Shown in pieces: positions 25,427-46,676 of a stretch of DNA of 64,000 nucleotides (its first letter is position 1; each line of letters starts with the position of its first letter). This DNA comes from an uncultured virus (IMG/VR IMGVR_UViG_3300037488_003510) (taxonomy: Duplodnaviria; Heunggongvirae; Uroviricota; Caudoviricetes), in the IMG/VR virus record IMGVR_UViG_3300037488_003510, one strand, 5' to 3'. The notes beneath the pieces are model-generated. The model did not search any database, was not told where the DNA came from, and was given only the letters and a program-made list of their open reading frames with translations. The position numbers were made by a program, and so were the translations under genes.

Positions 25427-28400
25427 TTACGTTTCGACCTTCACGCCCTTCGACGTTAGGTAAGTCAAGATTTTGTCACCCGAGGCCGTCTTCGCCGTGG
25501 CGCTGGCGTTTAGGCCGACATTGGCTAAGACAGCTTTGTTGAAGTCCTTCTTGCTCAGTTTCTTTGATTGCAGCGCATCCACGATGATCTCCTTGAAGCC
25601 GCGTTCAGCCCCTAGTTGATCGTCCTTTGTTTTTGATGTCTCAGCTGCTGGAGCCACCACGGGGACGGTTGGCGGTGTAGGCACAGGTGCAGGTATGGGA
25701 GCTGGAGCTGGCGCCGGCTTCTTTTTCTTCGTCTTGCTGTCTATTGCCATTGCCAAAGCTGCTGTACTAGAAAGGGCAGCCGTGGCGGGTAGGAGGATAG
25801 GAGCAACATTGGCTAGTTTTCGGAAGATGCTGAACGGGGACCATCCCATAGTGGTGCTAGTAGCAACTGACCTGGAGCGTCCCGTGATACCACCACGATA
25901 GTTGGCGAGAGGATCGCGAGTTGCGAAGGCAAGCGCCTTGAGGCTTTCCGTGATGAGAGAACCGAGGCCCGTGATGGGAGCTAACGGCAGGTCAGGAAGT
26001 GACGACAAGGGCTCAGGTCCTTCATAAGGAGGTGCTTTGGCCGCGATGATGGCAGCCTTGGAGTGCTGATTGAGCCGCTCAGCCAACCGTACTCCCTTGA
26101 CACCTTCCTCGGGCGTGATGGTGCCTTGGTTGGCCTTGGTGATAAGGGTAGTTAGCTCGGCTTGCGCAGCAGTCTGTTCGGCCGGAGGCAACGGCGGATT
26201 GACCTTGGCTAGGTACTCAGCCTTGGCATTGGGCTTGGCGGCGAGTGCCTTGGCGACGGTAGCAGCGGCGGTGAGAGAAACAGCTGCAAGAGTGGCTTCG
26301 GGAATCGGATTTTCTTGAGTCGCAGCTTTGGTGATTTCCTTGGCCTCGGCGATGGCACTTGGATCTCTCGCGGCGATGCGCTCGTTGAGATTGGCCGCAT
26401 CTTGCATCGTCTGCGAAATTGGCTTTCCCTTGTTGATGTCATCGATGAGTTGAACAGCCACGACATTTGCTGTCTTCTTGATGGCATTTGGGTCGCCAGT
26501 CTTCGCTGCTTCGAAGTTTTTGACGATGGCTTCCTTGGCTTGTTCGTTTCCAGCTTCCTTTGCAGCAACAACAGGGGCAGTGCGCTTCAAGTCTTCCGTC
26601 GCGGACGGCGCCTTAGTTGCACTGACTGCCAAGTTACCAGCCTCTTGCTTATTGCCGAGGGCTTGAGCGGAACGAGCACCGGCCGCCAACTCTTCGCGAG
26701 TAGCAGTTCCAGCAGCCTGCTTGGCCTTGGCCACAGCAACATTTTGCTTGTGGTTGACAGGGGCTTTCTTCGCGACCTTCTTGCCGAGCACCTTCGGTAG
26801 CACCGCAACGCCCGTGGCAATGGTTGAAGCAACAGCTACACCAATTGCTACTCGTCCCATGAAGCGCTTGGCATTGGGGTTTCCAGCTGACGCAGCAGCC
26901 TTGTTTACTTCATAGACACGCACAGCCTTCGGATTGCCTTTGCGCACCTTTTCCGCGAACTTCTGAGCCGCCACGAGGTTCTTGCGCTCGCGAGGTGTTT
27001 TGGCTGCCAGACGAACGGTCTTGGCAAGCTTCATCGCCTTAACACTACCAGCAGCCCTCTTGTCGCCTTTCTGAGCGAGGACAACTTGCTTCTTCACGAA
27101 AGCGCGAGCGGACTTGTTGCCAGTAGCTGCTTTGCGCTCAACCTTTGCCAAGGTGTTCAATTGGCGCTTTCGAGTCATGCGGACAAGCTTATTGGCCACT
27201 CCTGCTTCAAGCTTTCGCTGCACAGCAATGACTTTCTTTACCTTCGCGGTCTTGGCCTTGGCCACGGCATCTGTCTTCAATGCCTTTTGCTTGGCAAGAA
27301 CGGCCAGACGTCCAGCCTTGATCACATTGACATCGTGGAGGGCTTGCTTGTCGCCTTTCTTGGCTTTTGCGACCATGGTGGCCACAGCGGCATAGGCTTT
27401 CTTGTCACCTCGCTTGGCGCGCCTGTAGATTTCGGCGCCAGCTCGGATCTGAGTGCCCGTGGGGGATTGTTCCGCAGCCTTGGCGACGATCTTAGCTGAC
27501 TTCGAATCAGGCTTGAGTTGCTTAGTCCAGGCTCCCACGAAAGCACCCGAGGTGTCTTCGCTAGCCAAGTCAGGATTAGCTTCGACTTCCTTGGTCTTCA
27601 TAGCGGCTTCCTTGGCTAGAGCCTCAGCGTCGGCGGCATCGGCCTCGGCGTCGGCGGCAGCTGCAATAGCATTTTGAGCCCTCAGTTCGGCTTGCGTTTT
27701 CGCATCAGCTGCGGCGGCGCGAGCCCGAGCGGCGGTAGCTCGTTTGCGAGCTGCCGTCAGTTGGGAAAGGCGAACTTGTTCTGGTGACGAACCCCCCTTG
27801 CTGACAATGCCCAGCTTCTGCCCGGTCCACTTGGCGGCAGAGGCAATGTGCTTGGCAGGCAACCAAATGGGAGCAGTTGCGTACTTGAAAGCGCTGGACA
27901 AGGAGAAGCCGATGAAATCTCCTCCCATGATGTCGCCTGACTTCTTCAGTTCGGCCAGTGCTTTCACAGCGCGAGGATTGCCAGAGGCAGCCAGTTTGAC
28001 GATGGTCGAAACCATCTTCTTGTCGGCATCGCTCATGACCTTGGTGGCGCCAACGAAAGCACCTCTGCACAGCGTTTTTGCCTTGGAGTGACCGACAAAA
28101 GCAGAGCCAGAGACATGTGACTTGGTGAAGTCGTGCAGTTTCTTCTGTCCCTTGAGGAGATTGCGAACCAACTTCACTTCATCACTTGCCAGTTCTTTGC
28201 CCTCGGCGATCTTCTTTCCGAGAGCCTCGGCGATCTTCTTGTGCTTCCGATTGGCGTTAGCAGCGTTTTCGATGTTACCCATGATGCAAGCACCGACGAA
28301 GGCTCCGTGCATGACCAATGCTGGGTCATTGGAGGCTTCGATGAGGTCGCCGTGGACCACTCGAATGGAATGCAGCAAGCGAGCGATCTTTCGCGCGTTC

Positions 28401-30193: not shown

Positions 30194-30506
30194 GATTGGA
30201 ACTCTACAGGTGAGATTGAATTAGGTGTGCCACACCACTTGCGCTCAGATCGCTATTGTCTCCCATGTATTCTACCATTCCCAACACAGCCGAAATCATT
30301 TCTTTCATTGAAAATTTGCTAGCCGAACATAGTTCATCAATTCCCTCTTCTGGGCTATTGAACCAAAAAATTTCAGCGGCATTTTCGCCAAATGAACGAG
30401 CCCTCTTAATCGAATCTTCCCGATATGATTTGCGGGCGTTGGTTGAGTTCCTTGGTGAATAAGACTGAGATGATTTTCGATTTGGCATGTATTTCCTCGT
30501 GAGTGG

Positions 30507-31583
30507 TTAGACCGTTCGCCGTCCTGGTTGAGCACCTGGCAGGTACAGGGAGATTCCCGCCTTGCCGATGACCTTATCAACTGCCTCCTTGGCACGGAAG
30601 AAGTCTTTTGTGGTTGGTTTCTTTCCGCCAGCCGCTTTGATTGCCTGCTTGACAACGGTTGCCCTGTAGGTGTCGTGGGGGATGGAAGCGCCAATGAAGT
30701 CGCCCTTGATGAAGTTCCAGTGGCGATTGTAGCCCATGGAGCCGGTACGGCGCCGGAGAGCAGCACGTTCGCATTGACCACCTTCGGCCGCCAAGGCTCG
30801 CTCTTCCTCGCCGACGAAGACGTCGATGGTGGGCTGCGGGAGGGGGCCAGTGGGGCTCGGGGTGGGGGTGTTGGTGTAGTAGTATTCGTACTCAGGATCG
30901 TAGGGCAGCGGAGGATACTGAGAAGTTGAAGGTGAAAACGCTGCGGGCGATCCGTATGGGTTGCTGGAGGAAAGTGCTGGGGGTGCTCCATAGGGAGTAG
31001 TGGAAGGAATCACGGGAGGAGCCGTCGAGGGAGCAACCTGAGTGCCAAGTTTTCGCTGTAGACGTTGCAGCTTAGCAGCAGCTTGTTGATCACCAGCATT
31101 GGCCTGAGTTTGCAAGGTGCTCATTCGCTGTTGAACCTTTTGCAATCTTGCCGTAGCCCGAGTATCGCCGGCAGCGGCACGCGACTGCAAGCGTTGAAGT
31201 CCTGGTTGGTGGGGACGACGACGGCGGCCACCGAAGGCACCGAGGGAGGAGCCAGCAATCGAAGGAGGAGTTGGCAAGGAAGCTTTGTACTTCAAGGCCG
31301 AGGCGAGCACTCGCTTGGCGTTGTCGTTTCCTTTCAATGACAGACGAGCAACATGACCAGCGTATGCCTTGTTGAAGGTGATCATGCGAGCGACATCATT
31401 GATTTGATCTTGCGTCTTGAGCCCAGCGATTTCCTTTTCGAAATCCTCGCGCTCCGCTTCCCGAGATCCAGGCGTAGATTCGAAAAGCCGGCTGACGCCG
31501 GACGAACTAGATTCGTTGCCAGCACAAGCGGGAGTGCGAGACCAATTTCGAGTAGTTTCTCCAAGAATCAGATCGAATGACAT
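30507..31583 (-). CDS. Putative virion protein with MSFDLILG tag
   Basis: AGGAG SD before internal Met; shares FVG..ERA.A..GG.CERAALRRR with upstream gene. Confidence 0.75.
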   Translation of the reverse strand: MSFDLILGETTRNWSRTPACAGNESSSSGVSRLFESTPGSREAEREDFEKEIAGLKTQDQINDVARMITFNKAYAGHVARLSLKGNDNAKRVLASALKYKASLPTPPSIAGSSLGAFGGRRRRPHQPGLQRLQSRAAAGDTRATARLQKVQQRMSTLQTQANAGDQQAAAKLQRLQRKLGTQVAPSTAPPVIPSTTPYGAPPALSSSNPYGSPAAFSPSTSQYPPLPYDPEYEYYYTNTPTPSPTGPLPQPTIDVFVGEEERALAAEGGQCERAALRRRTGSMGYNRHWNFIKGDFIGASIPHDTYRATVVKQAIKAAGGKKPTTKDFFRAKEAVDKVIGKAGISLYLPGAQPGRRTV

Positions 31584-31593
31584 TGCATTTCTC

Positions 31594-32379
31594 CTAGTTT
31601 CGAAGCCCAGAACGACGACGAAGGGCAGCACGTTCGCAGGCGCCGCCATCTTCGGCCACAGCACGCTCATCGTCGCCGACGAAGGCTCCGCTGGTGATGA
31701 TTTCAGTCAGTCCATCGTCACCACTGGTGATGATTTCAGTCAACTTGTTGTCGCCGCTGCTGATGATCTCAGTCAGCCGGTCGTTGCCGACAAAGGAGCC
31801 GCTTGAAGCAGAAGGTGGTTCAGTGCCAACGACCTTCCGGTAGATCTTAACACCCGGCGATGGCGATTCCGTCACAAAGAACACACGGCGCCCCTTGTTA
31901 GCCATTTTTACTTTTCCATTAGCAAGCCCCCAATCAAGAAACTCTTTTTCGGGCTTTTTCAAAGACGGCAACAGCGTCTTTAGGGACTTTTCGTCGAGTA
32001 TGATTGGTAAAGGAGCTTTCCAGTAGATACTTCGAAGTGTTTCAAGGTGAACTTCTGTTGAAGAAAACTCTCCCTTCAACAATGTGGGAGTTCCCCTTTT
32101 TCCCTTGCCAAGCATCTGATAAGCCATGGCAATGGCCTTCTTGTTGCCTTTCGCCGCCTCGGCGAGAACCTTGGTTTCCATCTTCTTCCACTTCACCTGA
32201 GCTGTCTTGTCCCCAGCATCAGCCTTTGCCTTGATTCGCATCAGCTTTTTCACCTTGGCCTTTTCAATCGCAGTGAAGAGTGGCGCAGCAGCGGCCTTGA
32301 AAGCCTGGACCACAGCAGAGCGCTCAGCTCCACGCGACCAATCTAGGGATGTTTTTCCGAGCAACAAATCGTATGACAT
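31594..32379 (-). CDS. Putative virion protein with MSYDLLLG tag
   Basis: AGGAG SD; 3 copies of LTEII[ST]SG. Confidence 0.75.
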   Translation of the reverse strand: MSYDLLLGKTSLDWSRGAERSAVVQAFKAAAAPLFTAIEKAKVKKLMRIKAKADAGDKTAQVKWKKMETKVLAEAAKGNKKAIAMAYQMLGKGKRGTPTLLKGEFSSTEVHLETLRSIYWKAPLPIILDEKSLKTLLPSLKKPEKEFLDWGLANGKVKMANKGRRVFFVTESPSPGVKIYRKVVGTEPPSASSGSFVGNDRLTEIISSGDNKLTEIITSGDDGLTEIITSGAFVGDDERAVAEDGGACERAALRRRSGLRN

Positions 32380-32404
32380 TGGTATCTCCTGGCGGTTACG
32401 GCTT

Positions 32405-33028
32405 CTAGAAAATTCCATTGGTACGAGCAAAGCTCGTAGTGGTTGACTTGAACTTCTTTCGAATGTCCGGACTCTTCACCCAACTCTCAACACCAGCTTC
32501 ACCGGCCATGTGGCCGACACCGAGTAGACCAGAGAGTGAAGCCTTGACGCCATCAATGTCCGATCCGACGAACGAACCGACCTTAGATGCCATCCTCTTC
32601 ATCGAGCGTTTGAACGCCTCGTATTGAGCCGGAGTGCTTTCGAGAAACTTCTCGGTGGTCAGTGGGGCCTTCCATTCGCCAACCCACACGCCAGTTTCGC
32701 CGCCAATGGTGGCTTTTCGTGGGGCTTCCATGAACCCGATGTCGGCAAGGCGGCGAGCATCGAGTCCGAAGGTGCCGAGGCGACAACGAGGCGTCTGTAG
32801 GTTCTTGGGGGCAACAGCCATGATGGTGACAAAGCGCTCCCAGGCGAGAGATGGGACACCGAGGGGGGTCATCTTGCTGGGGGGGAGCATGGAGAGCCCC
32901 TTGCGAGAGCGGCCCAGAACGGCGCCGCCGAGGAACGAGAAGATCCCAACGGGAAGAAGAACCAAGGGGCTGATTGGCTTCACGACAATTCTCCTACACG
33001 AACACGTTTCTCGGTAGACCGAGACCAA
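32405..33028 (-). CDS. Membrane-anchored lysozyme-like protein
   Basis: N-terminal TM; LGTFGL..RRLADIG...FL.S..AQ...SGLLGVGHMAG. Confidence 0.5.
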   Translation of the reverse strand: MVSVYRETCSCRRIVVKPISPLVLLPVGIFSFLGGAVLGRSRKGLSMLPPSKMTPLGVPSLAWERFVTIMAVAPKNLQTPRCRLGTFGLDARRLADIGFMEAPRKATIGGETGVWVGEWKAPLTTEKFLESTPAQYEAFKRSMKRMASKVGSFVGSDIDGVKASLSGLLGVGHMAGEAGVESWVKSPDIRKKFKSTTTSFARTNGIF

Positions 33029-33233
33029 ATGTCTCAGTTACGACATTTGTCGTACCAGGATTGGTGCTAGTTACATTGTTTCTAGCTCCATATGGATTTT
33101 CAGCAACGACTGAAGCCCCGAGCCCCGCATTGCTCGAAGGGGACACGGTGACAGGTTGGTCCACGGTCAGAAGTCCGTCTCCCTGAAGAACCACATTCAC
33201 TAGACCTGGATTGGTAACGTCGATGGTTGGCAT
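32994..33233 (-). CDS. DVTNPGLVNV...PxxVFV family protein
   Basis: Shared termini. Confidence 0.7.
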   Translation of the reverse strand: MPTIDVTNPGLVNVVLQGDGLLTVDQPVTVSPSSNAGLGASVVAENPYGARNNVTSTNPGTTNVVTETFGLGLPRNVFV

Positions 33234-33248
33234 TGATTACATCCTTGT

Positions 33249-33695
33249 TTAGCGGGCTGTCCCGGCCTGCCTGATTGCCTTGCCCTGTCTAACCAGCCTT
33301 GAAACGCAAGGTAAAATTTGATCGGAGAGAGGAGGGGAATTTTGAGCTGTTTTGGAGTACCAACCCCCTCTATGTCCTTCACCACGATTTCCTTTGATGT
33401 ACGACTTAATCTCAGCATCAAGTGCTTTGCCGTATTTTCTGACTGTGATTACAATTTCCATGCCCTCTGGACTTGTCCATGTTAAGGCTGCGTTATGGGG
33501 CGTTCCACCTACTCGCATAAATGGACCGTAGGGACTAGCATCTAGCTTTTCAAGAATGCGATTGTACTCTTTGAGAATTTCTTGGCTCTCCTGGATACCA
33601 GGAGGGGCGCTAATGTTAATAACTGAAGGGGACGGATGTTTCCCTAAGAGCTTGCAAGCAATGATTAGCCCCGCGAAAATTGGAAGTATCCACAT
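33249..33695 (-). CDS. N-terminally anchored hypothetical protein
   Basis: N-terminal hydrophobic helix. Confidence 0.55.
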   Translation of the reverse strand: MWILPIFAGLIIACKLLGKHPSPSVINISAPPGIQESQEILKEYNRILEKLDASPYGPFMRVGGTPHNAALTWTSPEGMEIVITVRKYGKALDAEIKSYIKGNRGEGHRGGWYSKTAQNSPPLSDQILPCVSRLVRQGKAIRQAGTAR

Positions 33696-33707
33696 GAGCT
33701 TTTTCTC

Positions 33708-35369: not shown

Positions 35370-35433
35370 CGGCGATCTCCTGTGGGTTGTATGGACCTGA
35401 AGAGCGATTTCATATCACCCCCCATCCACCGAG

Positions 35434-35832: not shown

Positions 35833-35844
35833 GGTTTCGTTCCT

Positions 35845-36336: not shown

Positions 36337-36433
36337 TGGGTGTTTTCCTTTGCAATACCAAGCATTGTAGCCGACGGTGGTTCAAGTAGCAAGTCGCATC
36401 CACACTGGAAACGAGATCAAATTGACAAAGTTT

Positions 36434-37126
36434 TCATGGCGCGCGATAGCGTAAGACGTTCAAGTTCAAATTGCGAATTATAATGTCGGTTGTGTCGGTC
36501 TGGTTGTTGATCGCCAATGATATCTTGTCGCCCGCCGCAACGGTAAGAAAGCAACCGCCTGCCAGGCAAGCTGCGCCGGCTGTGGCTATGATTTGTTCGC
36601 TCGCCGCTTTGTCTAGGTTGGAGGCATTTTGCAAAGGTTCGATCTTCCAGTCCTTATTTCCGTTAGCAGGTGCAATGGTAGCATCCCACATCAAGCGATA
36701 GTTTCCAGCTGCCGATGGACCCGCAACAATACACGTCCCTCGCGTATAGTTACCCGTGGCTGTACTGGTGAACGAGGCGATTACATTGAATGAAGTGGCC
36801 GTGACGCTTTGAATGACGAAAATGGTTGGGTTTGGAGGACGATAGCCAGCGACGGAAGAAAGCGTAATCGCCACAACTTGACCGGCGACCATGCCGTGAG
36901 CCCCCGACGTATTGAACGTGATTTGGCCTCCCCCCGCATTGGCTACGCTGGTAAAGGCACCACCTGTTCCAGCTACAAATGTCCAACCATCAAGAAAACC
37001 GGCCACAACACCTGCTGTGAATATCGGGTTGTAGGTGTTGGTTTGAGTGATATTGAGCGATATGGCATTCTCGTATTCACTCATCTCACCGACACCGTTT
37101 ACAGCTGGATTTGGTGTGTATGACAT
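36434..37126 (-). CDS. Fibre- or spike-like beta protein
   Basis: TSGAHGMVAGQVV motif; C1q-like ending AAGDKISL. Confidence 0.6.
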   Translation of the reverse strand: MSYTPNPAVNGVGEMSEYENAISLNITQTNTYNPIFTAGVVAGFLDGWTFVAGTGGAFTSVANAGGGQITFNTSGAHGMVAGQVVAITLSSVAGYRPPNPTIFVIQSVTATSFNVIASFTSTATGNYTRGTCIVAGPSAAGNYRLMWDATIAPANGNKDWKIEPLQNASNLDKAASEQIIATAGAACLAGGCFLTVAAGDKISLAINNQTDTTDIIIRNLNLNVLRYRAP

Positions 37127-37996
37127 TTAGTTAAGACCGTTCCATGTATTCCAGTCGCCGACTGGCAGTCCATTGATGGTTTTGATGGAACTGTCTGCCA
37201 ATCCATTCAAGGATTTGCCCTTAGTTGGACCCCCAGTAACACAAACGAAGTTGGTGCTCGAATTGAATGTATGAATCGTGTAGATGCCATCGACTGTCTT
37301 CGTTCCCCCTGTGCAGACACCGAAGTCATCAGTGACATATTTGATGATGACTTTTCCCGAACCTCCCTGACCGCCGAGCCCTGCGGCGCCCCAGCCTCCA
37401 CCTCCACCACCTCCCGTATTTGCAGCTGCATCAAATCCTCCGGTGTGAGCTGACGTACCTCCGTTTCCTCCTCCATTGTTCCCCGTACCTCCACTGCCAG
37501 CCCCGGTGAGCGATCCACCTCCACCACCTCCATAGAAGTTGGCATCAAAAAAAGCATAGCCAAGCCCAAATCCGCCATCTCCTCCGTTGGGAGTTGTGGG
37601 GGTTTGTCCAGCGCTGCCCATACCACCACCTCCACCAGCAGGACGTGCGGCGTTGACGAAGTTCTGTCCTCCATCCTTACCAGGATTTCCAACACCAGCG
37701 ACGCGCAATGTAGCTGTCGAACCGGCCGCGCCACCCCCACAAGCTCCATTGTATCCATTGCCAGGTGACGAACCTCCCGCTCCACCTCCGATAGCCGCGA
37801 CACCATTGAAGCTTGAACTACCGCCATTCACATCCCGAGCAGCCGCCGTAGCAACAACAACCGGATAAGTACCTGCTACTATATTTACATCGAAAGCGGC
37901 AGCAACTTCACCACCACCACCTCCACCACCACCGATAGCATTGGACGAACCTCCACCACCACCACCACCGACTATCAGATGACTCAAGGGTGGCAT
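37127..37996 (-). CDS. Glycine-rich virion protein
   Basis: LIVGGGGGG...ANTGGGGGGG...GGSGKVIIKY...HTFNSS. Confidence 0.8.
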   Translation of the reverse strand: MPPLSHLIVGGGGGGGSSNAIGGGGGGGGEVAAAFDVNIVAGTYPVVVATAAARDVNGGSSSFNGVAAIGGGAGGSSPGNGYNGACGGGAAGSTATLRVAGVGNPGKDGGQNFVNAARPAGGGGGMGSAGQTPTTPNGGDGGFGLGYAFFDANFYGGGGGGSLTGAGSGGTGNNGGGNGGTSAHTGGFDAAANTGGGGGGGWGAAGLGGQGGSGKVIIKYVTDDFGVCTGGTKTVDGIYTIHTFNSSTNFVCVTGGPTKGKSLNGLADSSIKTINGLPVGDWNTWNGLN

Positions 37997-38637
37997 TACA
38001 ACAACTTGTAGATGCTAGAGTATCGAGTGCTTGTAACAGGTGTCACTGGAGAGCCTTCGAGGACTTTGCCATCTGGAGATTCCGGAACAGATGACATGAA
38101 GTCGTCTAGTTCAGCGAGACTTGTCATGGCTGAGTTGATTGTCGCTCCGGTGATACCGGATTCCCAGTCAGCATGATGACTCAGGCTCAAGCGAGGACCC
38201 GTGTGCCGAAGTTGGCATAGACTTGGATAGTGGGAGCCACTTGTCAGATCGCCGTCCAGAGAGGCCATCGCTTCGATAGCGACTTTCAGCTCTGAACCAA
38301 GTACCCCGTTACCCAAATCATCACTATCACCTATCAAAGTGACCAGATCGAGAGTATCATAATAACCCTTCAGGCGGCGATGCTGAATGAGGATATCTAG
38401 AATTCCCACTCCACAGGTTTTGAGACACCCGAAGAATTCCCCGAGTTTTGGATGCGTTTTGACTAGGCTACCTAGATCGTTTCCGCTGTCCAGGAGAGAC
38501 TGGAGTCCGGTGGATTCGTAGTGCTGGCGAATGGAAGCTAGCGCCAACAGTTCAAGATCGAACTTCTTCAAAAGAGTTGAATAGTCGCTGTAGAAGGTCG
38601 ATACGATATTGTTTCTCATGAGATTTTCCTTACGCAA
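37996..38637 (-). CDS. Hypothetical protein
   Basis: 213 aa in operon. Confidence 0.6.
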   Translation of the reverse strand: MRKENLMRNNIVSTFYSDYSTLLKKFDLELLALASIRQHYESTGLQSLLDSGNDLGSLVKTHPKLGEFFGCLKTCGVGILDILIQHRRLKGYYDTLDLVTLIGDSDDLGNGVLGSELKVAIEAMASLDGDLTSGSHYPSLCQLRHTGPRLSLSHHADWESGITGATINSAMTSLAELDDFMSSVPESPDGKVLEGSPVTPVTSTRYSSIYKLL

Positions 38638-39166
38638 ATCGAGTCATGTAATCAGGACTCGGGTTGAAATCGAGTGTGTTGGTATTCAGTGCGGCTGTAC
38701 CAATGCAGCGGGGAGCATGATCTGCCGAAAGGGGCAACGAATTGGAGATAGCTCCAGCTGTTTCTGAAACGAAAATCTGTGCGTTGGGAAGAGTCAACAC
38801 CGCACTGTATGCAGCAGCGCGAACCATCCCTCGCAGAAGCATTCTAGTCGGCTGACCACTACCAGCTGCTGCTAGAATGCATATTCCAAGTCGTCCTCGA
38901 CAGTCACCAGCTGTCGCTGTAATGATACCAGCATCAGCTTTTTGCCAATAACCAAGCGAGCCGCCAGTGCCGGAAGGCGAGCACAGATCGCCAAAGACCA
39001 AGGTTTCACCCGCCGTTCCAGGTATACCTTCACCACAATACATACCGTCCGCGCTGAGAGCTGTGTTCAACAGAAAGAGAGTGTTCTCGCCCAACGTGTA
39101 GATCGCACCAGTCGGGAAAGTTCCGGTCAGCAAATCGGCAGGGAATTGTTTGGGGACGAAGGACAT
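38630..39166 (-). CDS. Capsid cement- or fibre-tip-like protein
   Basis: AGETLVFGDL...WQKADA...LGIC...LLRG.V...IFVSETAG. Confidence 0.6.
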   Translation of the reverse strand: MSFVPKQFPADLLTGTFPTGAIYTLGENTLFLLNTALSADGMYCGEGIPGTAGETLVFGDLCSPSGTGGSLGYWQKADAGIITATAGDCRGRLGICILAAAGSGQPTRMLLRGMVRAAAYSAVLTLPNAQIFVSETAGAISNSLPLSADHAPRCIGTAALNTNTLDFNPSPDYMTRFA

Positions 39167-42100
39167 CTAGCACAACTCCCAATCAGTTGTTGTGCTGTTG
39201 AAGCGGAGCCAAATGCACTCGCCAGAGATGTTCATGGTGTAGTTGCCCGCCACGTTGTTGATCTTGTCAGCGCCGTTGCGAACAAGTGTGATATTGTTCA
39301 CAGATGCGTTGTACCCGCTGTCCTTGACGGGGATAACGCGACCTTCGACACCAGCAGGCAAGTTGATGGAAATAGCCGCAGCGGTCGTGCGGCGAACTTT
39401 CAAATAGTAGTCGGTGGCAAGAACTGTATATGGGCCAGCCACATTGACATCGGTAGCCGACACTGTTTGATCTGCACCGAATTTTATGCCACCGTCGATT
39501 CGTGTAAGACCCGATTGAACCCAAAGCGCATAAGCATTGGTAATGGATACATCTGCGCCAGCGGTCGGAGCGCCAAGAATTGCAAGCGAAGCGGAGTGGG
39601 TAATCGCACAAGTGGCAGTATCGCCGTTGATTGAAGCGGCGGCGATTGAAACTGCATTGAAGCCAGTGGCCGTAACAATGGCGGTGTTTCCAGTGACGTT
39701 CATGCCGTCGGCTACAAAGTCGATGCCATTCCACACGGCGCCAGCGGCAGAAGTTGCAAAGTGGTTTGCAGAAGACACTCGTAAAGATGAGGCTGGAGCG
39801 GCATTAGGAGTGCCAATACCCACCGTTTGATTACTGTCGATGCGCATGCCCTCTACAGCGAATGATGTCGATGCGATTGTGAAGAATTGAAGTGTTCCTC
39901 CGTAGACGTTTGTGGCCACGTCTTTAGCACCAAGGATGTACGAGAACTTGGTAGGCGAGAGAGCAGCGCTGCCACCGATGTCGACTCGACCTCCGAACAA
40001 AAGACTTCCGCCACTGCCGACGCTTGGCCCTCCGGTATTGTTATCAATTAAGGCCAAAGTAAACGTGTTGTTGTTTCCGAACACCACCATATCGGAGCTA
40101 GTGGTGTGAAGCATGAACAGATCGATCTGAGTCCCGAACATCGAACGTCCGGTTTGAGTCCAAAGCGCTAAGGCATTTTCAATAGTAGCATTTGCTCCGC
40201 TCAAGGGGGAGCCGGTTATCGCAACCGAGGCAGCCGTTGTGATAGTGGAAGCTCCAGCGAAAGCATACGTTGGCGCTTGGAAAAGAATTTCTCGTTGAGT
40301 GGCTATTGCTCCGGTCGCCCAAGTTTTTGTCGCCGAAAAGTTGAAATTGGCAGTTATCGACTCACTTGTCGCTGCAATTGCGCTCGCCGTGGCACTGGTA
40401 AGTGATAATAGCGTTCCGGGGTTTGATCCTGCAAACTGAGTGACAGTCACGTTGGCATTGCGAGCAACAGCAAACCTACTTACACCCGAGCGCTGCAAAT
40501 CCATGAGATTGGCGACATTTCCGATGGAAACGTCGATCTCATTGACGAGTAGTCCAGTTACGTCCCCGTTGGCACCGCCTGTCTGATTGACAGTGTACGT
40601 GAGGTTGAGAGCCTGAAATGTGGCAGTGCCTGATGTAGGAGCAAAGGTTGCTGTTGCCCCTATGAGCTTTTGCGCTCCGCTGGTAGCGACATACGTGCCG
40701 CCGTCATGTTGCACTGAACCTGATTGTGTCCACAGGGCATAGGAATTCGTGAGAGTGGCATTTGCTCCAGCAATTGGAGCACCCGAAATCGCTAAGGTGG
40801 CAGCGGAAGTGATTGTGGAAGCGCCAACGAAGGTATAAGTCGGGGCCTGAATCAACACTTCGCGCTGAGTTGCCAAGGCACCTGTTGCCCATTGCTTGCT
40901 CGCACTGAAGTTGAAGTTCGCGCCAATGTCTTCCGCCGATGTTGTAATGGCGGTATGAGCACCTCCGACAACGGTGAAAGCGGTGGGCGCCAAAGCATTC
41001 AATGCTTGTTGCACAACATGCAAAGTCGAGGTGGGGAACGTACCAATACCAAGTCGCTTGTTGGTGTTGTCCCAGAAGAAGTTTGGATTGTCTTCGGCGA
41101 GCTGTCCAGTCGTTGAGCCGAAAGGCACGGAGCCTTGGGTGAAACCTCCTACTGCTGGACCTGTCAACAATGGAACATAGGCACCCGTGTTCATCGAAAC
41201 ATAGAATTGCTGAGAGGCGCCAGAGCGATACCCAAGGCGTCCAGTATTGGCCTGCGAGACTACCGTTGCCCCGGAGCCGAAAACGATGTTGTTTTCGTTA
41301 TGAGGGTCGACGCTAGCCCCAAGAACGAGTCCACTTTGAAATTGAACTGCTCCCACAACACCAAGGGACCAAGATCGCGTCAGAGTGGACGTTCCGCCAG
41401 GAGCAGCATCTAAAAGTAGATTGTAAGCATCGCTTACGGTAATTCCAGCTCCATTTATTGTGGGAGTACCAACACTCACCATGGCTAGTTTGTTTACAGT
41501 AGTCGGAGCGCCAGTCAGGGTGACAGTGCTTGCTAGAAAAGCAACCTCGTTCCAGTTTGCACCACCAGCAGCAGCTACGGAAAAGGCCGAGGAAACATCG
41601 AAACCTCCTTTGCGATAGAAATTGGTGCTGCCACCAACCACATCGATTTCGAAGGCCACGGCGCCTGTGAAGTTTACAGGATCGGTCGCATTGACGACTA
41701 TCCCGCCACCCTTGGCGTCCAGTAACACAAACGTCTGATCGCTTGCCGCAGCTCCATTGTTATAAGCTTGTGCTAAGGTGGTAGTGACCGCTGCATTGTC
41801 GAGTTGAATGCGTACATTTCCACCACTTGTCCAATACAGGTGTGTGCCATCTGATTCTATGGCTCCAAGTTCAGTTGCAGCTAGAAGTGTGCCAGCATCG
41901 ATCTTGAGTGAGGCGGTACCTGCAATGGTAGTCACTCCAGCGACGTGCAGACGAGCAGTCGGTGTAGAGGCAACGTCAATGCCAAGTCGTTTGTTGGTGT
42001 TGTCCCAAATGAAATTGGCGTTGTCTTGTATGGGCTGGCCAGTGGCGCCACCAAAGAGAATTGAACCCTGGGTAAAACCTGCGGCGGCAGGACCGACGAG

Positions 42101-43393
42101 AATTGGAACATAAGCTCCCGTGTTCAACGATGCATAGAATTGTTGTGAGACGCCTGCAATGTATCCGATTCGTCCGCTGTTAGCTTGTGAGACAACAGTT
42201 GCACCGGCACCGAATACGATGTCGTTTTCCCCTGGCGGATTGAGACTTGGCCCCATCACGAGTCCGCTCTTTGCCTGGATGGCGCCAGAAGCACCAAGGC
42301 TCCAAGAGCGGGTGATAGTGGCAGTGCCGGCCGGACTTAGGTCAATCAGCTGGTTGTAGGCATCGCCCACGGTGTTTCCAGCGCCGTCGATGACTCCCGA
42401 GCCGACGTGTGACATCGCCAGTGAGGTCACTGCGCCAGGTGCACCTGTCAATGTTACCGTTGAGGCTTGTAGATCAACTTCATTCCAGACTGCCCCTGCT
42501 ACGGAGGCAACTAACTTAGAAGAGGCAACTAAGAAACCACCTGTTCGAGGAAAGGCGAAAAGTCCTCCCGAGGGAGCGACGACTTGAAGGGAATAAGTAC
42601 CCGTGAAGACAGCATAGTGGCCATCGATGATGACACCGCCACCTTTAGCGTCTGCCAGCGGCAAGGTCTGGTCAGCCGCTACAGATCCATCCTCATAGGC
42701 TTGCTCAAGCGTTACCGTGGAGGTGCCACTTGGATCGGTTTCGCCTCCAACAGTAGCGAACAAGTTTCCTAAAACGAAACAGCCATCTAGGACATTTAGT
42801 CGCAGGTAGCGAACTTGTTGTGTATAAGCTAGCGGCCCGTTTTCTGGCACGGACGACTGCAACCCGTTGTTCAATGAAGACTTCGAAGAGTTCTTGAATG
42901 AGCCAACCGGACTGAACTTCACACCGTCGAGGCTTCCCTCAACGGATATTGTTCCGATGAAAGGACCGTTCAAGATGATGTTGGTTCCGGATAGAAGCCC
43001 GGATGGAGGAATCAGACCGAACAGATCGACAACTGGCTGAGGTCCGTAACTTCCAAGCGCGACGATTGGGAACGGAGCGAACGAATTGGCCGACGCGGCG
43101 AAGTTGCCTGAAACACTAGCTGTGACTCCAATCGCATTGGAGGCGAGAGAATGCATCCGAACCGACAAGTACGAGGACTCGAAGATCTGCCGGATGGACT
43201 GAGGCCTCGCTCCTGAGAAGGAGAAGATCGGGACGAAGTTGGCGTTGTCGTGGCTTCCGTACAGAATGTATTGGCCGTCAAAGGAACCATCCAAAAGAAT
43301 GGTTTTCTCTCCAGCCAATGTCGAAATGTCTAGAATCGGACCATCAGTTCCGTAGATACCTGGAATTACGATGGGTAGAATTGAAAGTGGCAT
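39167..43393 (-). CDS. 1408-aa fibre or adhesin with internal duplications
   Basis: Two TL.QAY..G blocks, two DN.NF.WDNTNKRLGI, three AL.I.GAP.AGA..TI.N.YALW blocks. Confidence 0.8.
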   Translation of the reverse strand: MPLSILPIVIPGIYGTDGPILDISTLAGEKTILLDGSFDGQYILYGSHDNANFVPIFSFSGARPQSIRQIFESSYLSVRMHSLASNAIGVTASVSGNFAASANSFAPFPIVALGSYGPQPVVDLFGLIPPSGLLSGTNIILNGPFIGTISVEGSLDGVKFSPVGSFKNSSKSSLNNGLQSSVPENGPLAYTQQVRYLRLNVLDGCFVLGNLFATVGGETDPSGTSTVTLEQAYEDGSVAADQTLPLADAKGGGVIIDGHYAVFTGTYSLQVVAPSGGLFAFPRTGGFLVASSKLVASVAGAVWNEVDLQASTVTLTGAPGAVTSLAMSHVGSGVIDGAGNTVGDAYNQLIDLSPAGTATITRSWSLGASGAIQAKSGLVMGPSLNPPGENDIVFGAGATVVSQANSGRIGYIAGVSQQFYASLNTGAYVPILVGPAAAGFTQGSILFGGATGQPIQDNANFIWDNTNKRLGIDVASTPTARLHVAGVTTIAGTASLKIDAGTLLAATELGAIESDGTHLYWTSGGNVRIQLDNAAVTTTLAQAYNNGAAASDQTFVLLDAKGGGIVVNATDPVNFTGAVAFEIDVVGGSTNFYRKGGFDVSSAFSVAAAGGANWNEVAFLASTVTLTGAPTTVNKLAMVSVGTPTINGAGITVSDAYNLLLDAAPGGTSTLTRSWSLGVVGAVQFQSGLVLGASVDPHNENNIVFGSGATVVSQANTGRLGYRSGASQQFYVSMNTGAYVPLLTGPAVGGFTQGSVPFGSTTGQLAEDNPNFFWDNTNKRLGIGTFPTSTLHVVQQALNALAPTAFTVVGGAHTAITTSAEDIGANFNFSASKQWATGALATQREVLIQAPTYTFVGASTITSAATLAISGAPIAGANATLTNSYALWTQSGSVQHDGGTYVATSGAQKLIGATATFAPTSGTATFQALNLTYTVNQTGGANGDVTGLLVNEIDVSIGNVANLMDLQRSGVSRFAVARNANVTVTQFAGSNPGTLLSLTSATASAIAATSESITANFNFSATKTWATGAIATQREILFQAPTYAFAGASTITTAASVAITGSPLSGANATIENALALWTQTGRSMFGTQIDLFMLHTTSSDMVVFGNNNTFTLALIDNNTGGPSVGSGGSLLFGGRVDIGGSAALSPTKFSYILGAKDVATNVYGGTLQFFTIASTSFAVEGMRIDSNQTVGIGTPNAAPASSLRVSSANHFATSAAGAVWNGIDFVADGMNVTGNTAIVTATGFNAVSIAAASINGDTATCAITHSASLAILGAPTAGADVSITNAYALWVQSGLTRIDGGIKFGADQTVSATDVNVAGPYTVLATDYYLKVRRTTAAAISINLPAGVEGRVIPVKDSGYNASVNNITLVRNGADKINNVAGNYTMNISGECIWLRFNSTTTDWELC

Positions 43394-43432
43394 ATATGAC
43401 CGCCCTCCGCTCTTTTGGCAACCGCACCTGTC

Positions 43433-44398
43433 TTACACAAACACGTTTACCGGGAGCCCCACGAATGGTGTCTGGTTGATTACTTCCACGTTAATCGACG
43501 ATGGAACCTGAGTTCCTGATGTGATGATAGGTTGTCCAGGTTGAGCACCAGTGCTAATGTTGTAGCCTCCATTGAAGCCTCCCTGGCTACTCAGATCTTG
43601 GCTTGCATTTGCAACGAAAGTTTGAGGACTCGGAAACACAATCACATCAACTGGAATCCCAGTCGGCAGATTGACTTGTTCGGAGCCTTGGCGCTGAACA
43701 TCCAGCAGAAACGTGTCGCCTGCCGAGGGAGCCGTCAATGAAGACACATTGCCATCATTGGTGTCATCCTTGTCGATGACGATGTAGTTTGTGTTGTACC
43801 CTGTGATGAAACGGACAGCTCCCTGGTCATCCGATGTGCTTGTATCGTCAGCAAAGACAATCTGCCGACCAAGCATTGAAACCGGATAGCTGGTCAAGGC
43901 GGGAGGATCGACCACGAGAAGATATCGTGTGGTAGTGGCACTCGGGGCGCTCCATAGCTTATCAGCATCGTACACAGCTGAGATGGTACATAAAACCGTT
44001 GTGGTCTCTGAATTGTTCGTTTGAATGGACTCTGCTGGCCCCACGACAATGAATTCAGCAGGAGGAACAAAACGCTTGAATCCATTCGGCTGATTCGGAT
44101 CGACAGGCACCCAGACACCTTGTCCGAGCACCTGATCATCTACGATGACTTGAGAGTACAGGGGAACGGTTGCATATTGCGTAACTGGAACCACGGGAGT
44201 TCCAGTTACAATAACATCACCCGGAGTAGGGAAGACACTCGACGAAACGCCATTGCCAGCGGGGGGATACCCTTGGGAACCAACATCGGTTAGAACATCG
44301 AGTTGCTCAGGTGTGAGCAACACCGATCCTCCGTTTGGGTCCGGATTCTCACTTACTTCATTTGCTACATTCACAAGTCCTGGGTTTGTGACATCCAT
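43433..44398 (-). CDS. DVTNPGLVNV...PxxVFV family structural protein
   Basis: Shared termini. Confidence 0.7.
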   Translation of the reverse strand: MDVTNPGLVNVANEVSENPDPNGGSVLLTPEQLDVLTDVGSQGYPPAGNGVSSSVFPTPGDVIVTGTPVVPVTQYATVPLYSQVIVDDQVLGQGVWVPVDPNQPNGFKRFVPPAEFIVVGPAESIQTNNSETTTVLCTISAVYDADKLWSAPSATTTRYLLVVDPPALTSYPVSMLGRQIVFADDTSTSDDQGAVRFITGYNTNYIVIDKDDTNDGNVSSLTAPSAGDTFLLDVQRQGSEQVNLPTGIPVDVIVFPSPQTFVANASQDLSSQGGFNGGYNISTGAQPGQPIITSGTQVPSSINVEVINQTPFVGLPVNVFV

Positions 44399-44407
44399 GG
44401 CTTTTTC

Positions 44408-45382
44408 CTACTTGTGTTTTGCGTATCCCAGCAGTCGTCGAGCCACTGCCTTCTCACTCTTGGGGATGAATCTCTTCTCCTCGCGCGACCAACCAATTAC
44501 CTTGTCCACGTCGAATTCACCATCGCCGAGCAAGATCGAATTGGTTATATAAGCACCCATCTCAGGGTCATCTGAATTTCCCATGACCTCACTCTTCTTG
44601 GCCATCAAGTCGAGAACTTGTTTGTCCAGCTTGACAGAGACGCCGCCGTTGTAGCCCGAGGGCTTCTCCGGATCTACCACCATGACGTCGGGCGCTTTGG
44701 CGAACTGAAGGATGACTGGGATTGTGCCATCTCGGAGCTTCTCCGCTGTGTTGTTAGCTGAGAATTTCTTCTCTTTGCCCATTCCGAGCACCAAGGATGG
44801 ATCTTCGAGTCGGCCGTCTGGTAGAAACACAAGGGCATGGTAGTGGTAGTTGCCCTGGGGGCCACGGCGCCACTTCGCGAAGGGCTTAGCCCGAATTCCA
44901 CCAGAAACTTTCTTCCAGCCGGCCCAGTCAGATTCGCCAGACACTGGCACAGGACCACCAGGAATTACTGGCTGAGGATAGCGAGGATCGGCACATTCAG
45001 TTTTTGACTTGTTCCAAGGAGCAGGTCGCTCATAGTGGTACGGAAGCTCTCGCAATTCAGCAACTCGATAGCACGCTAAATCTTCGCAATCGCCCCAATG
45101 ACCAGGATAAAGACCTTTACCCATGGTTCCCATGAGAAGTGAGGGAATGTCAGGCCAAATCTCAGTGCCTTTTTCCGTCTCATAGTGGAGACCGGAGCGG
45201 TAGACGCTGGGGTAGTTGTACTGAACGAGACCGCGCTTTTTGAACTCTTCGAATTGTCGAAGGTGAGTCTGATTGACTCGGCAGAGGCCCTCCATGAGCC
45301 ACAACATACGCATCTGCGACCAGACTTGATCCCAGTCACCTCTGAACATCTGGCAGCGGAAAACAATGTTTGGCATTCCCAT
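44408..45382 (-). CDS. Transglutaminase-like Cys protease, candidate maturation protease
   Basis: GDCEDL (Cys), YHALV (His), EDPS (Asp) in triad order. Confidence 0.7.
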   Translation of the reverse strand: MGMPNIVFRCQMFRGDWDQVWSQMRMLWLMEGLCRVNQTHLRQFEEFKKRGLVQYNYPSVYRSGLHYETEKGTEIWPDIPSLLMGTMGKGLYPGHWGDCEDLACYRVAELRELPYHYERPAPWNKSKTECADPRYPQPVIPGGPVPVSGESDWAGWKKVSGGIRAKPFAKWRRGPQGNYHYHALVFLPDGRLEDPSLVLGMGKEKKFSANNTAEKLRDGTIPVILQFAKAPDVMVVDPEKPSGYNGGVSVKLDKQVLDLMAKKSEVMGNSDDPEMGAYITNSILLGDGEFDVDKVIGWSREEKRFIPKSEKAVARRLLGYAKHK

Positions 45383-45548
45383 GGTCGAACGAACTCCTTA
45401 CTTGTTGCTTAGTCAGATCTAAGTGGGAAGCAATTAAGAAGTCCGAGGGAAACAGTCAAATTCCGCATCAGAGGACTCCTTTCTAGTGGTGAGGCCGGGA
45501 GAGCTATAGGCCCTGCAACCGGAAAAAGCATGATGGGTTTCTAAGAGG

Positions 45549-45590
45549 CGCCCGCAGCTGAAGGAACCCATCCACCCCCAGCTGCGGGCT
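45549..45590. terminator. Strong GC hairpin
   Basis: GCCCGCAGCTG...CAGCTGCGGGC; no clear U-tract. Confidence 0.45.
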
Positions 45591-45616
45591 ATTCAGTTGT
45601 AGTAGCAGTTCAGTTG

Positions 45617-45979
45617 TTACGCAGGAGCGCCAGCAGGCGGTGGGATCACCGTGCGCAAGATCCAGATCGAGAAGTCGCTGTCGATTGCCGTGGTGGCATT
45701 GCAGATCTGAACCAGCTTCGTGGCGTCAGCGTCGTCATTGACGGTCGCGGCGTGAATGACACCATTCAGAGCAACACCCGTGGCCATCTTCGGTTGGATG
45801 AAGATGAGATCACGGACACCGTTCTGGGTCATGTTGGTTTGCAGAGCAACGGAGTAAGTTCCGAGGCTCTGACGAGTGGTGGTAACGCCACTGTTGGTGC
45901 GAGTGGAAGAGCCGTCAGCTCCCACAACCTCGGCATACGCAACCGTGGCAAGTGCGGCGGAATCGAATAGAGCGTTCAT
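45617..45979 (-). CDS. Small beta-rich virion protein
   Basis: Directly downstream of capsid candidate; GGAG SD. Confidence 0.65.
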   Translation of the reverse strand: MNALFDSAALATVAYAEVVGADGSSTRTNSGVTTTRQSLGTYSVALQTNMTQNGVRDLIFIQPKMATGVALNGVIHAATVNDDADATKLVQICNATTAIDSDFSIWILRTVIPPPAGAPA

Positions 45980-46021
45980 CGTTGTTTCTCCAGTGAGAGT
46001 GATTGAAGTGGCGGTTTTGAA

Positions 46022-46064
46022 ACCTGAGTCCGGAGACTGACTTTCATCGGCTTCCGGACTCTGG
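46022..46064 (-). terminator. Hairpin after capsid candidate
   Basis: GAGTCCGGA...TCCGGACTC followed by GGTTTC. Confidence 0.45.
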
Positions 46065-46076
46065 CTTCAGTGATGA

Positions 46077-46676
46077 CTACTCGACAGCCGGGCCGACGAG
46101 ACCACCCTGGAAGTTGCGGGCGGCCGGGTTCTGGTTGGTGACCGAGATCGTCACGAACATCGAGATCTGAGCCGTGTCCATCTTCAAACGGACGCCGAAC
46201 GCATTCTCGGTGAACATAACGGCCGGCAGAGCGCCGGTCGACACCAACTGCGAGTTCTTGCCGACCTTGATGTCGGTGATCAAGAAGTCAACCGCGATGT
46301 TCGAGGGAACGACCAAACGCTCAGGACGGAAGATGACCTGGGGCTGGACGTTGATGTTTGCCGAGCTGTTGCCGGCAACGCTGGTGCTGCCAAGACCGAG
46401 AGCATACTCACGCGAGCTGCGAGGAGAGACCGAGCGCAACAGAGCACCCGATTCCACGCGGCGACGGAGCAGGTCGCGAGCCATAGCAGTCTTCTTGGCG
46501 TTCTTCTTCCGGCGCGCGAGAACCGCGCCCAGAATGTCGTCACCCGACTCATCGCTGTCACCAACGAAAGCGCCGGATTCATCGTCCCCGTCGAGCAGAT
46601 CGCCGAGAATTTCAGTGGTCTCGAAGCCGAGAGAGTCATCGCCATCGAGCAAATCGCCGTACATGTCCTTGACCAT
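46077..46676 (-). CDS. Candidate major capsid protein (acidic leader plus ~110-aa beta domain, single jelly-roll-like)
   Basis: Acidic N-terminus with SLG/ILG/FVG motifs; all-beta C-terminal domain; GC3-rich codons; AAAGGA SD; near head of structural operon. Confidence 0.55.
   Translation of the reverse strand: MVKDMYGDLLDGDDSLGFETTEILGDLLDGDDESGAFVGDSDESGDDILGAVLARRKKNAKKTAMARDLLRRRVESGALLRSVSPRSSREYALGLGSTSVAGNSSANINVQPQVIFRPERLVVPSNIAVDFLITDIKVGKNSQLVSTGALPAVMFTENAFGVRLKMDTAQISMFVTISVTNQNPAARNFQGGLVGPAVE

Follow-up and report, generated by a model that had tools for sequence, protein, structure and literature searches.

We propose that a stretch of DNA from an uncultured virus (IMG/VR record IMGVR_UViG_3300037488_003510) encodes the virion proteins of a tailless virus and a cysteine enzyme that would cut some of them after glycine. 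The window that we analyzed is 64 kb, or about half of a 128,897-bp contig. With most of its genes on one strand and many of them small and unknown, it resembles the genome of a large virus. The best explanation that we have for the region studied is that it is the morphogenesis module of a large (at least 129 kb) tailless double-stranded DNA (dsDNA) virus of bacteria. An earlier interpretation of the letters alone (the sequence-only reading) had pointed to a small beta-rich capsid protein, a transglutaminase-like protease, and a polyprotein with repeated glycine motifs; every open reading frame (ORF) that it named is present, with its motifs where they had been placed. We put the probability of the full proposal, that is, a tailless jelly-roll virus that matures by cuts of the cysteine enzyme after glycine sites, at about 0.58. 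The tailless jelly-roll architecture taken by itself is very likely in our view. Cleavage after the glycines by the transglutaminase-fold enzyme, taken by itself, is probable as judged from sequence comparisons.

The candidate major capsid protein has 199 amino acids (aa). It has an acidic disordered leader (aa 1-50) with the motifs DDSLG, EILG, AFVG, and DILG, a basic helix (aa 47-75), and a jelly roll (aa ~86-199). In an AlphaFold2 (AF2) model built from 116 sequences, the predicted local distance difference test (pLDDT) is 96-98 over aa 91-199 and about 47 over aa 1-30. When this model was searched against 48,161 chains (VIA), the first match was HHIV-2 (Z = 8.7, root-mean-square deviation (rmsd) 6.7, 112 aa). 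Further top matches were HCIV-1 (Z = 7.8, rmsd 2.9, 107 aa) and SPV1 (Z = 7.4, rmsd 3.1, 114 aa), and the search also returned the STIV turret (Z = 7.6) and VP17 of P23-77 (Z = 6.7). We searched the sequences of the PDB from three alignments, including those of the capsid and enzyme families, and found no match. We predict from the model that the protein adopts a single-jelly-roll fold whose nearest structures are capsid proteins.

The jelly roll is also predicted to associate with itself. When four copies of aa 76-199 were modelled together, the median ipSAE (an interface score) was 0.61, as compared to 0.00 for the best of three controls; at least 75% of the contacts agreed between runs and the pLDDT was at least 80. 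(Our mark for self-association was passed by 20 of 30 solved homo-pairs and by 1 of 23 single chains; it was calibrated on two copies and is roughly valid for four.) The predicted interface is head-to-tail and would suit assembly into rings: aa 143-166 in one copy contact three stretches of its neighbour (aa 88-126, 157-163, and 190-197). The role of the protein in the capsid, the vertical orientation of its jelly roll, and the size of the ring are inferred. The family is large: there are 607 close homologs, and the clusters at 50% identity, paralogs among them, number 2004. Within the block, no gene is better conserved than this one, with a mean of 77% across 79 metagenome loci that were themselves selected on the capsid gene. 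The small beta capsid candidate of the sequence-only reading is thus supported by the modelled jelly roll, by the HHIV-2, HCIV-1, and SPV1 neighbours, and by the predicted self-association.

The second component is an enzyme of 324 aa. It has no sequence match in Pfam, PHROGs, NCBIfam, or the PDB, but its model (pLDDT 77 overall) matches 3kd4, PeiW, PeiP, TglA, and LapG with Z of 4.5-5.9 (the match with the best Z has an rmsd of 4.4 over 118 aa). Most of the top 29 fold matches have the transglutaminase fold. PeiW and PeiP, which are pseudomurein endoisopeptidases, are the second and third matches, and transglutaminases are present as well. In ESM Atlas rows 16-27 for this enzyme, PF01841 was found on 13-48% of the members. 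Cys99, His182, and Asp194 show no variation across all 57 close and all 12 distant sequences. Among 120 homologs there were 10 long ones, and in all 10 an intein lies immediately before the catalytic cysteine. Inteins usually sit in the conserved active sites of needed proteins. As judged from the model, with its Cys-His-Asp triad and core fold, the protein belongs to the transglutaminase-like superfamily, and the transglutaminase-like enzyme with a C-H-D triad that had been proposed from the sequence holds up. Small versions of the enzyme have just 121-180 aa, and they do not have the C-terminal tail (aa ~236-324), which is modelled with low confidence. In this tail, two of the sites that had been noticed fared poorly: EVMG is not conserved (G268), and ILLG is partly so (G286 is present in 41 of 57). 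Two other sites, VIG|W (G297) and LLG|Y (G319), are found in 57 of 57; both are of the form hydrophobic-hydrophobic-Gly-aromatic.

The third line of evidence is the glycine motif. In the window, we counted matches to [DEA]-hydrophobic-hydrophobic-Gly and obtained the expected numbers from shuffled sequences; the pattern was picked after viewing the sequence. There were 13 sites in the 1588-aa protein (1.4 expected) and 3 in the 199-aa protein (0.4 expected). The 30507, 31594, and 44408 proteins have one site each (0.2-0.3 expected). In eight spike/fibre-like or small beta genes there were 4 sites, against 3.5 expected, and in all remaining ORFs there were 16, against 10.4 expected. The sequence-only reading had seen these motifs in all five of the proteins named: for the capsid leader and the 1588-aa protein the signal is strong, but for the other three it is at most weak. 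The motif enrichment that it proposed is thus supported for the leader and the 1588-aa protein.

The leaders of other family members gave a larger and independent sample, in which the pattern holds. Among the best 150 of the 2004 representatives, 124 contain a single barrel, which in 102 cases is preceded by a leader of at least 30 aa. The stricter motif [DE]hhG (h for hydrophobic) occurs 155 times in the 102 leaders, as compared to 9.8 expected, and 0 times in the 124 barrels; at least one such site is present in 69 of the 102 leaders. If a looser site is allowed, 94 leaders have one, and the median charge is -8 through the last site and +5 beyond it. In 81 of the 94, the glycine is the sharp end of this switch from acidic to basic. 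The number of motif copies per leader ranges from 3 to 7 among 120 close homologs.

The 1588-aa protein is a candidate core polyprotein. Its net charge is +68, with an acidic first part (-24 over the first 144 aa), and it contains helical GNP/GDK repeats. Across 70 sequences (including the query), hhG occurs 880 times, as compared to 321 expected, and the consensus of the sites is G-[GA]-[ADES]-[FIVL]-[VLMI]-G. The conserved glycine sites are at about aa 144, 268/273, 383, 460, 555, 634/639, 701/715, 757/762, 883/887, and 1528. Fourteen of the 22 motif-type glycines are kept in at least 83% of the 70 sequences, and the other eight are not. After sites 144, 273, and 887 there are aromatic residues in 89-100% of the homologs. 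We considered whether every site might release an amphipathic helix and rejected this, as it holds for site 144 alone of the 11. Parts of the polyprotein correspond to separate genes (602 and 1404 aa) in a 194-kb relative (G001), and one of its repeat regions matches a 122-aa gene of a 30-kb relative (G156), which would fit a fusion of modules that are joined at glycine sites.

The window has no match to a terminase, a portal, an HK97 capsid, or a tail tube among its 94 ORFs (Pfam and PHROGs, E ≤ 0.01); the sequence-only reading, too, had seen no terminase, portal, or tail tube. The sole match with a tail label is a weak one to a tape-measure protein (E = 0.004) in an 81-aa ORF. In G156, there was no terminase, portal, or HK97 match among the 31 genes of at least 90 aa that were scanned, and no Walker A motif in any called gene. 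In G001, there was no portal or HK97 match among 259 ORFs of at least 170 aa (Pfam) or 148 called genes (PHROGs), and searches with PF03237, PF04466, PF04860, and PF04665 were all blank; the only terminase label falls on a HerA-type protein. These two relatives thus support the tailless architecture, and by their gene content both appear to be without the set that marks Caudoviricetes (HK97, portal, and terminase). The sequence-only reading had named an A32/FtsK ATPase as the alternative to a terminase, and this did not hold for the small relatives, which contain no such gene; G001 has no PF04665 match and one HerA-like protein, which may or may not act in packaging. In the integrated element of Polyangium sp. 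15x6 (see below), a loose Walker A pattern is matched by the integrase alone. More broadly, G156 and the integrated copies have no P-loop ATPases apart from ParA-like genes in some.

Our scan of genomes found 22 loci, 15 of which are from Myxococcota records. Among the 16 loci that we analyzed, the capsid family is present in 16, the protease in 14, and the upstream protein in 13, and these are nearly always adjacent. The order of the block is a divergent helix-turn-helix gene, the membrane-type protein, the jelly roll with its leader, the protease, a membrane-anchored protein, a helical protein, a 230-aa protein, a lysin-like gene, and a homolog of window 3175-4296. Across the metagenome loci the protease is found in 43 of 79, many loci being too short to extend to it. 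G001 is 88% complete by CheckV and is syntenic with the window. G156, whose 29,914 bp contain the whole block, has direct terminal repeats of 97 bp. (CheckV rates its completeness at 31%, which is at odds with the terminal repeat.) Integrated elements of 10-21 kb in the chromosomes of Polyangiaceae carry the membrane protein, the capsid gene, and the protease. The isolate Polyangium sp. 15x6 carries the block within a stretch of ~21.5 kb, with predicted junctions at about 86.8 and 108.3 kb of C133. This stretch also encodes a tyrosine integrase, and its two flanks have a 13-bp core in common; we believe from these features that it is an integrated element. No tRNA was found at the integration sites that were checked. 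Some of the integrated copies are ~11 kb with host genes on the flanks and no recognisable replicase (G004 and G005).

The block is patchy in its distribution. The protease profile matches 13 of 151 genomes of the Polyangium family (3 of these supplied the alignment), the capsid was found in 4 of 301 genomes of the phylum with a strict filter, and there was no match among 50,697 GenBank phage records. On the 12.2-Mb chromosome of G077 there are two solitary homologs of the protease, at C1:3236868-3237380 (L156/L155) and C1:4832083-4832343 (L157); from their sequence context, these may be remnants or captured genes. We rejected G002:C14, a 272-kb contig from an alphaproteobacterial metagenome-assembled genome, as evidence about hosts, since it is probably a chimera: its virus-like part extends only to about 40.8 kb, where the sequence switches within a module gene to DNA that resembles a host's (L116:2140-2830, about 40.1-40.8 kb). 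Because of this, "longest contig" values of 282-290 kb are unverified as genome sizes. The best explanation for these findings is a widespread lineage with integrated members of 10-21 kb in Myxococcota, a circular member of 30 kb, and members of about 200 kb. If we extrapolate from relatives at about 35-45% capsid identity, then the host of the window's virus may belong to Myxococcota.

We suggest the following mechanism. The shell would be built as rings from one small single-jelly-roll protein, as in SPV1 and sphaerolipoviruses. The capsid and core proteins would be made as precursors with acidic spacers that end in [DE]-hydrophobic-hydrophobic-Gly, and the adjacent transglutaminase-fold cysteine protease would cut on the C-terminal side of the glycine, in many cases with several redundant sites to choose from. 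Cutting would strip the acidic, scaffold-like leaders and might release segments, basic or rich in aromatic residues, with affinity for DNA or for an inner membrane. As the small members have no packaging ATPase, their DNA is probably not pumped into the particle but condenses together with the basic core proteins. The lineage is probably tailless, membrane-containing, and portoglobovirus-like; the membrane is suggested by hydrophobic segments, in neighbouring genes only. A more ambitious version, which we offer quite tentatively, is that an overlooked lineage builds both 30-kb and 200-kb particles from one jelly roll of ~115 residues, with no motor and with the protease as the charge switch.

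Another short motif, which the sequence-only reading had passed over, recurs at N termini. Four proteins in the window begin with M[AS][YF]DL[IL]LG (11128-11436, 18031-18603, 30507-31583, and 31594-32379), and a longer form of this tag, M[AS][YF]DL[IL]LGxT[ST]x[ND][WY]S, is found on window proteins that are otherwise unrelated. (The genes at 30507 and 31594 probably start at 31583 and 32379.) The start of the tag is also found on six proteins of G001 (as MAYDL) and on one protein of G002. Across 819 genes from 51 loci, four start with M[AS][YF]DL[LI], and in all four the next residue is Arg. We rejected the idea that the tag spread as a duplication of DNA, as the codons differ between copies and the upstream DNA is unrelated. 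Such a pattern suggests that the tag serves for recognition, with or without being cut.

Several points weigh against our proposal. The fold scores are modest: Z for the enzyme tops out at 5.9, and for the capsid candidate the best Z is a middling 8.7, with non-capsid GOLD domains scoring up to 7.8. Foldseek found nothing significant for the enzyme model and, in the PDB, nothing at E ≤ 0.001 for either model; in BFVD, there were five matches at E ≤ 0.001, every one of them unnamed or uncharacterised. The hallmark scan of the virus's own genome covered the window, which is about half of the contig. In G001, L002:15604-17352 is labelled 'terminase large subunit' by phrog_2666 (E = 2e-13); Pfam and NCBIfam both identify it as HerA, it has the HerA motifs, and it lies among replication genes outside the module. 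The ESM Atlas clusters are mostly labelled as Uroviricota. As for the glycine sites, the strict motif is missing from 33 of the 102 leaders, and the mean conservation in the polyprotein is 0.67 for motif glycines and 0.58 for other glycines. An amphipathic helix is clear after site 144 (0.51, as compared to a 90th percentile of 0.40) and not after the 10 other sites. Five of the six MAYDL tags in G001 do not have a glycine right after the hydrophobic run. One genome (G077) has protease-like genes and no capsid gene. Finally, both the cleavage and the virion are predictions, made from genes and models.

It could be that the virus is tailless as we propose and that the glycine motif is a docking or loading tag, cut rarely or not at all: a short strand that is bound by a scaffold, a membrane protein, or an exosite of the enzyme. 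What mainly speaks for this is the N-terminal tag, which recurs in related form (M[AS][YF]DL[LI]), mostly without glycine outside the window, and whose protein sequence is maintained although the codons have diverged; the variable number of motif copies in the leaders would fit as well. We nevertheless consider it unlikely, given that the glycine ends the charge switch in most leaders, that the adjacent enzyme has an intact catalytic triad throughout, and that propeptides which are cleaved typically have redundant sites (PMC10052503). A different job for the enzyme, either in entry or lysis, as an isopeptidase that acts on the cell wall, or in the shell, as a true transglutaminase that cross-links it, would leave the motif unrelated to the enzyme. 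This would account for PeiW, PeiP, and transglutaminases among the fold matches, but other proteins of this fold score equally low Z values, and versions of 121-180 aa are too small for a cell-wall-binding domain. Also, there are separate lysin-type genes (an amidase in the window, SLT in G001, and endolysin matches in G156), and the enzyme gene adjoins the capsid gene, so we find this explanation improbable.

Two other alternatives concern what kind of element this is. The small chromosomal copies might be domesticated particle systems that do not infect, similar to gene transfer agents or nanocompartments, with the module of the large genome as cargo and not as its own capsid. The ~11-kb copies amid host genes with no recognisable replicase are what this would predict, and the packaging ATPase is missing. 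The patchy presence in the family and the phylum, the integrase and flanking core in Polyangium sp. 15x6, and the existence of a free circular member of 30 kb argue the other way, and G001 offers no other capsid candidate; we think that domestication is very improbable. We give the least credence to a tailed jumbo phage whose HK97 capsid, portal, and terminase are highly divergent and whose 199-aa protein is a jelly-roll cement protein. The genome is jumbo-like with 34 tRNAs and Uroviricota labels, G001 matches phrog_1645 ('virion structural protein') besides the 'terminase' of phrog_2666, and a 140-aa chain of the capsid of cyanophage Pam1 is at rank 49 of the Foldseek matches for the 199-aa model. 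However, G156 and the integrated copies have the whole block with no P-loop ATPase except for the ParA-like genes, two libraries and its motifs make the G001 ATPase a HerA, and the GenBank phage records contain no match.

Table. Features of the window that are discussed in the text (relatives G001 and G156 are the 194-kb and 30-kb genomes).
Feature	Position	Strand	Remarks
Candidate major capsid protein, 199 aa	46077..46676	-	Leader, basic helix, single jelly roll
Transglutaminase-fold Cys enzyme, 324 aa	44408..45382	-	Fold matches, invariant triad
Codons of the enzyme's triad	Cys99 45086-45088; His182 44837-44839; Asp194 44801-44803	-	
Candidate core polyprotein, 1588 aa	25427..30193	-	79 matches, including itself
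Basic protein, 358 aa	30507..31583	-	Tag MSFDLILG; internal SLG, FVG, DFIG; partial homologs in G001
Basic protein, 261 aa	31594..32379	-	Tag MSYDLLLG; SFVG, AFVG, three ITSG
Tagged protein	18031..18603	-	N-terminal MAYDLILG; the identical tag starts 11128-11436
Candidate membrane protein directly upstream of the capsid gene	46745..47416	-	Helix and one hydrophobic segment
Small 120-aa protein between capsid and protease	45617..45979	-	In 68/79 metagenome loci
Conserved protein, hydrophobic N-terminus	32405..33028	-	54% identity to G001 ortholog
Gly/Thr/Ala-rich gene block	36434..44398	-	230, 289, 213, 178, 1408, 321 aa; acidic or neutral
312-aa protein	23442..24380	-	Family profile E 1.7e-5; also in small integrated elements and G156
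Core-module protein, 373 aa	3175..4296	-	Alpha/beta N-part and coiled coil; no Walker A
Conserved divergent gene	47509-48036		In 54/79 metagenome loci
Four leaderless jelly-roll paralogs	47852-48496, 48825-49262, 49259-49840, 49833-50447	+	Domain profile E 1e-10 to 2e-24
tRNA array	52.8-57.0 kb (52814-57026)		34 tRNA genes, single strand, adjoins HNH gene

Some other genes of the block may also contribute to the virion. The candidate membrane protein likely starts at 47293, which gives 182 aa with an N-terminal helix and a hydrophobic segment at aa 90, and it is present in 67 of 79 metagenome loci. The 120-aa protein, with three similar copies in G001, is a candidate minor capsid protein. The Gly/Thr/Ala-rich genes are candidates for spikes or fibres, given their composition and variability: the 39167 gene is found in 24 of 79 metagenome loci and the 43433 gene in 22 of 79. 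In this block, Pfam's Gly_rich_2 is found on 37127-37996 only, and the glycine motif is not enriched. We regard the 312-aa protein as a candidate vertex protein. Fourteen of the 16 genome loci have a member of the family of the 373-aa core-module protein (E = 1e-40), for which neither Pfam nor NCBIfam gave a match above the cut-off.

The leaderless paralogs of the jelly roll face away from the capsid operon and come after the conserved divergent gene. Leaderless paralogs of the capsid domain were also found in G001 (three), G006:C46 (three), and G156 (one). These extra paralogs vary in number and lie outside the core block, which has one leader-bearing gene, and the integrated copies have a single capsid-family match each. 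The leaderless paralogs may be decoys against rival viruses, or they may be minor capsomers.

The rest of the window includes amidase, glycosyltransferase, methyltransferase, and radical SAM genes (from a Pfam scan). At 3-386 (- strand) there is an ORF of tandem 11-aa repeats (LKGTISPNLTG type) that runs past the window's edge, and at 20351-21323 there is a tandem set of three alike ORFs of 86-88 aa. In a scan for promoters and terminators, the signals were at chance level. A search of sequencing runs listed no RNA run and one DNA run, with a share of 0.07, which we left aside. G001 has 38 tRNAs in an order that is similar to that of the window's array. It also encodes a family B polymerase of the organellar/viral type (PF03175; L003:706-2817), and polymerases of this type are usually protein-primed. 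The first 159 bp of G001 recur in inverted form (94% match) about 1.9 kb from its opposite end, so by its sequence it is possibly a linear genome with terminal repeats. Other genes in G001 encode a major vault protein (L005:3838-6546), RtcB (L004:10805-11950), and TROVE/Ro60 (L006:17857-19539).

The lineage is apparently undescribed. We found no published description in the literature that we searched, where subscription papers are thinly covered, so a prior description is possible. Six new groups of myxobacterial viruses are all Caudoviricetes, and 'jelly' is not mentioned in the available text (10.64898/2026.09.14.751636); the available part of PMC5894146 mentions neither 'protease' nor 'transglutaminase', and PMC13552765 and 10.1101/2025.08.03.668216, as far as available, treat other elements. 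The single-jelly-roll dsDNA viruses so far are few, small, and from extreme habitats. SPV1, with one capsid gene and no packaging ATPase, has been proposed to resemble the ancestor of the group (PMC8812541). If our proposal is correct, then a common bacterial lineage of the SPV1 type, with jumbo-sized members that carry tRNA arrays, would greatly widen this group, and it would account for 'Caudoviricetes' contigs that do not have hallmark genes. It would also pose the puzzle of how virions that have no motor take up 130-200 kb of DNA. In the more ambitious and tentative version, polyprotein maturation in the style of eukaryotic viruses would have arisen independently on a portoglobovirus-like capsid, and the lineage would merit a high-rank taxon of its own. 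The copy in the cultured Polyangium sp. 15x6 and a minimal protease of 130-160 aa make the virion and the cleavage testable.

How does this system compare to known ones? The enzyme shares its fold and its Cys-His-Asp triad with LapG and PeiW/PeiP, while its sequence has no match in Pfam, PHROGs, NCBIfam, or the PDB. As in adenovirus, poxvirus (I7), and African swine fever virus (ASFV; pS273R), sites that end in glycine are found in several precursors, and ASFV, too, has a basic core polyprotein, for which the 1588-aa protein is the candidate here. The proteases of these viruses belong to clan CE, with the order His-Asp/Glu-Cys. The enzyme here has the order Cys-His-Asp and a transglutaminase fold, so the likeness that the sequence-only reading had drawn is an analogy and not homology; also, the capsid proteins of those viruses are double jelly rolls. 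The amphipathic segment after one site is similar to the N-terminal helix of adenovirus protein VI (PMC3386624).

In SPN3US, propeptides are removed by multiple cleavages and the protease (gp245) trims its own C-terminal tail; the likeness is in one short motif that is repeated in many head propeptides, in the multiple cuts, and in the protease's tail (PMC10052503). In contrast to the motif here, that motif ends in Glu (AXE). SPN3US is a giant tailed phage with a portal, and its protease is unrelated to the enzyme here. Borgs are also large elements with HCIV-1-like jelly-roll paralogs, and their packaging ATPase is not ubiquitous (10.1101/2024.11.05.622173). They are set apart by their description, in the available text, as archaeal and megabase-sized, with no pair of glycine leader and protease described (10.1101/2024.11.05.622173).

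Helvetiavirae and Singelaviria are represented among the structural neighbours of the capsid candidate by HHIV-2, HCIV-1, and VP17 of P23-77. We know of no maturation protease in Helvetiavirae. Helvetiavirae have two jelly-roll capsid proteins in heterohexamers and a FtsK-HerA ATPase (PMC8812541; Singelaviria are also treated in PMC12714852). Here, there is a single leader-bearing capsid gene in the core block, with leaderless paralogs outside it in some genomes, and an FtsK-HerA ATPase is missing from the small members.

The closest likeness in gene content is to SPV1 (Portogloboviridae). Like SPV1, G156 and the integrated copies have one single-jelly-roll capsid gene and lack a packaging ATPase. 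SPV1 has an internal membrane and a 20-kb genome, and the hosts of Portogloboviridae are archaeal (Sulfolobales). In this lineage the integrated relatives are in bacterial records and the window carries an amidase, so it departs from Portogloboviridae in its host. That SPV1 has no packaging ATPase is stated in PMC8812541. Unlike SPV1, the lineage that we propose would have bacterial hosts, genomes of about 10 to about 200 kb, an acidic leader with glycine motifs, and an adjacent cysteine protease.

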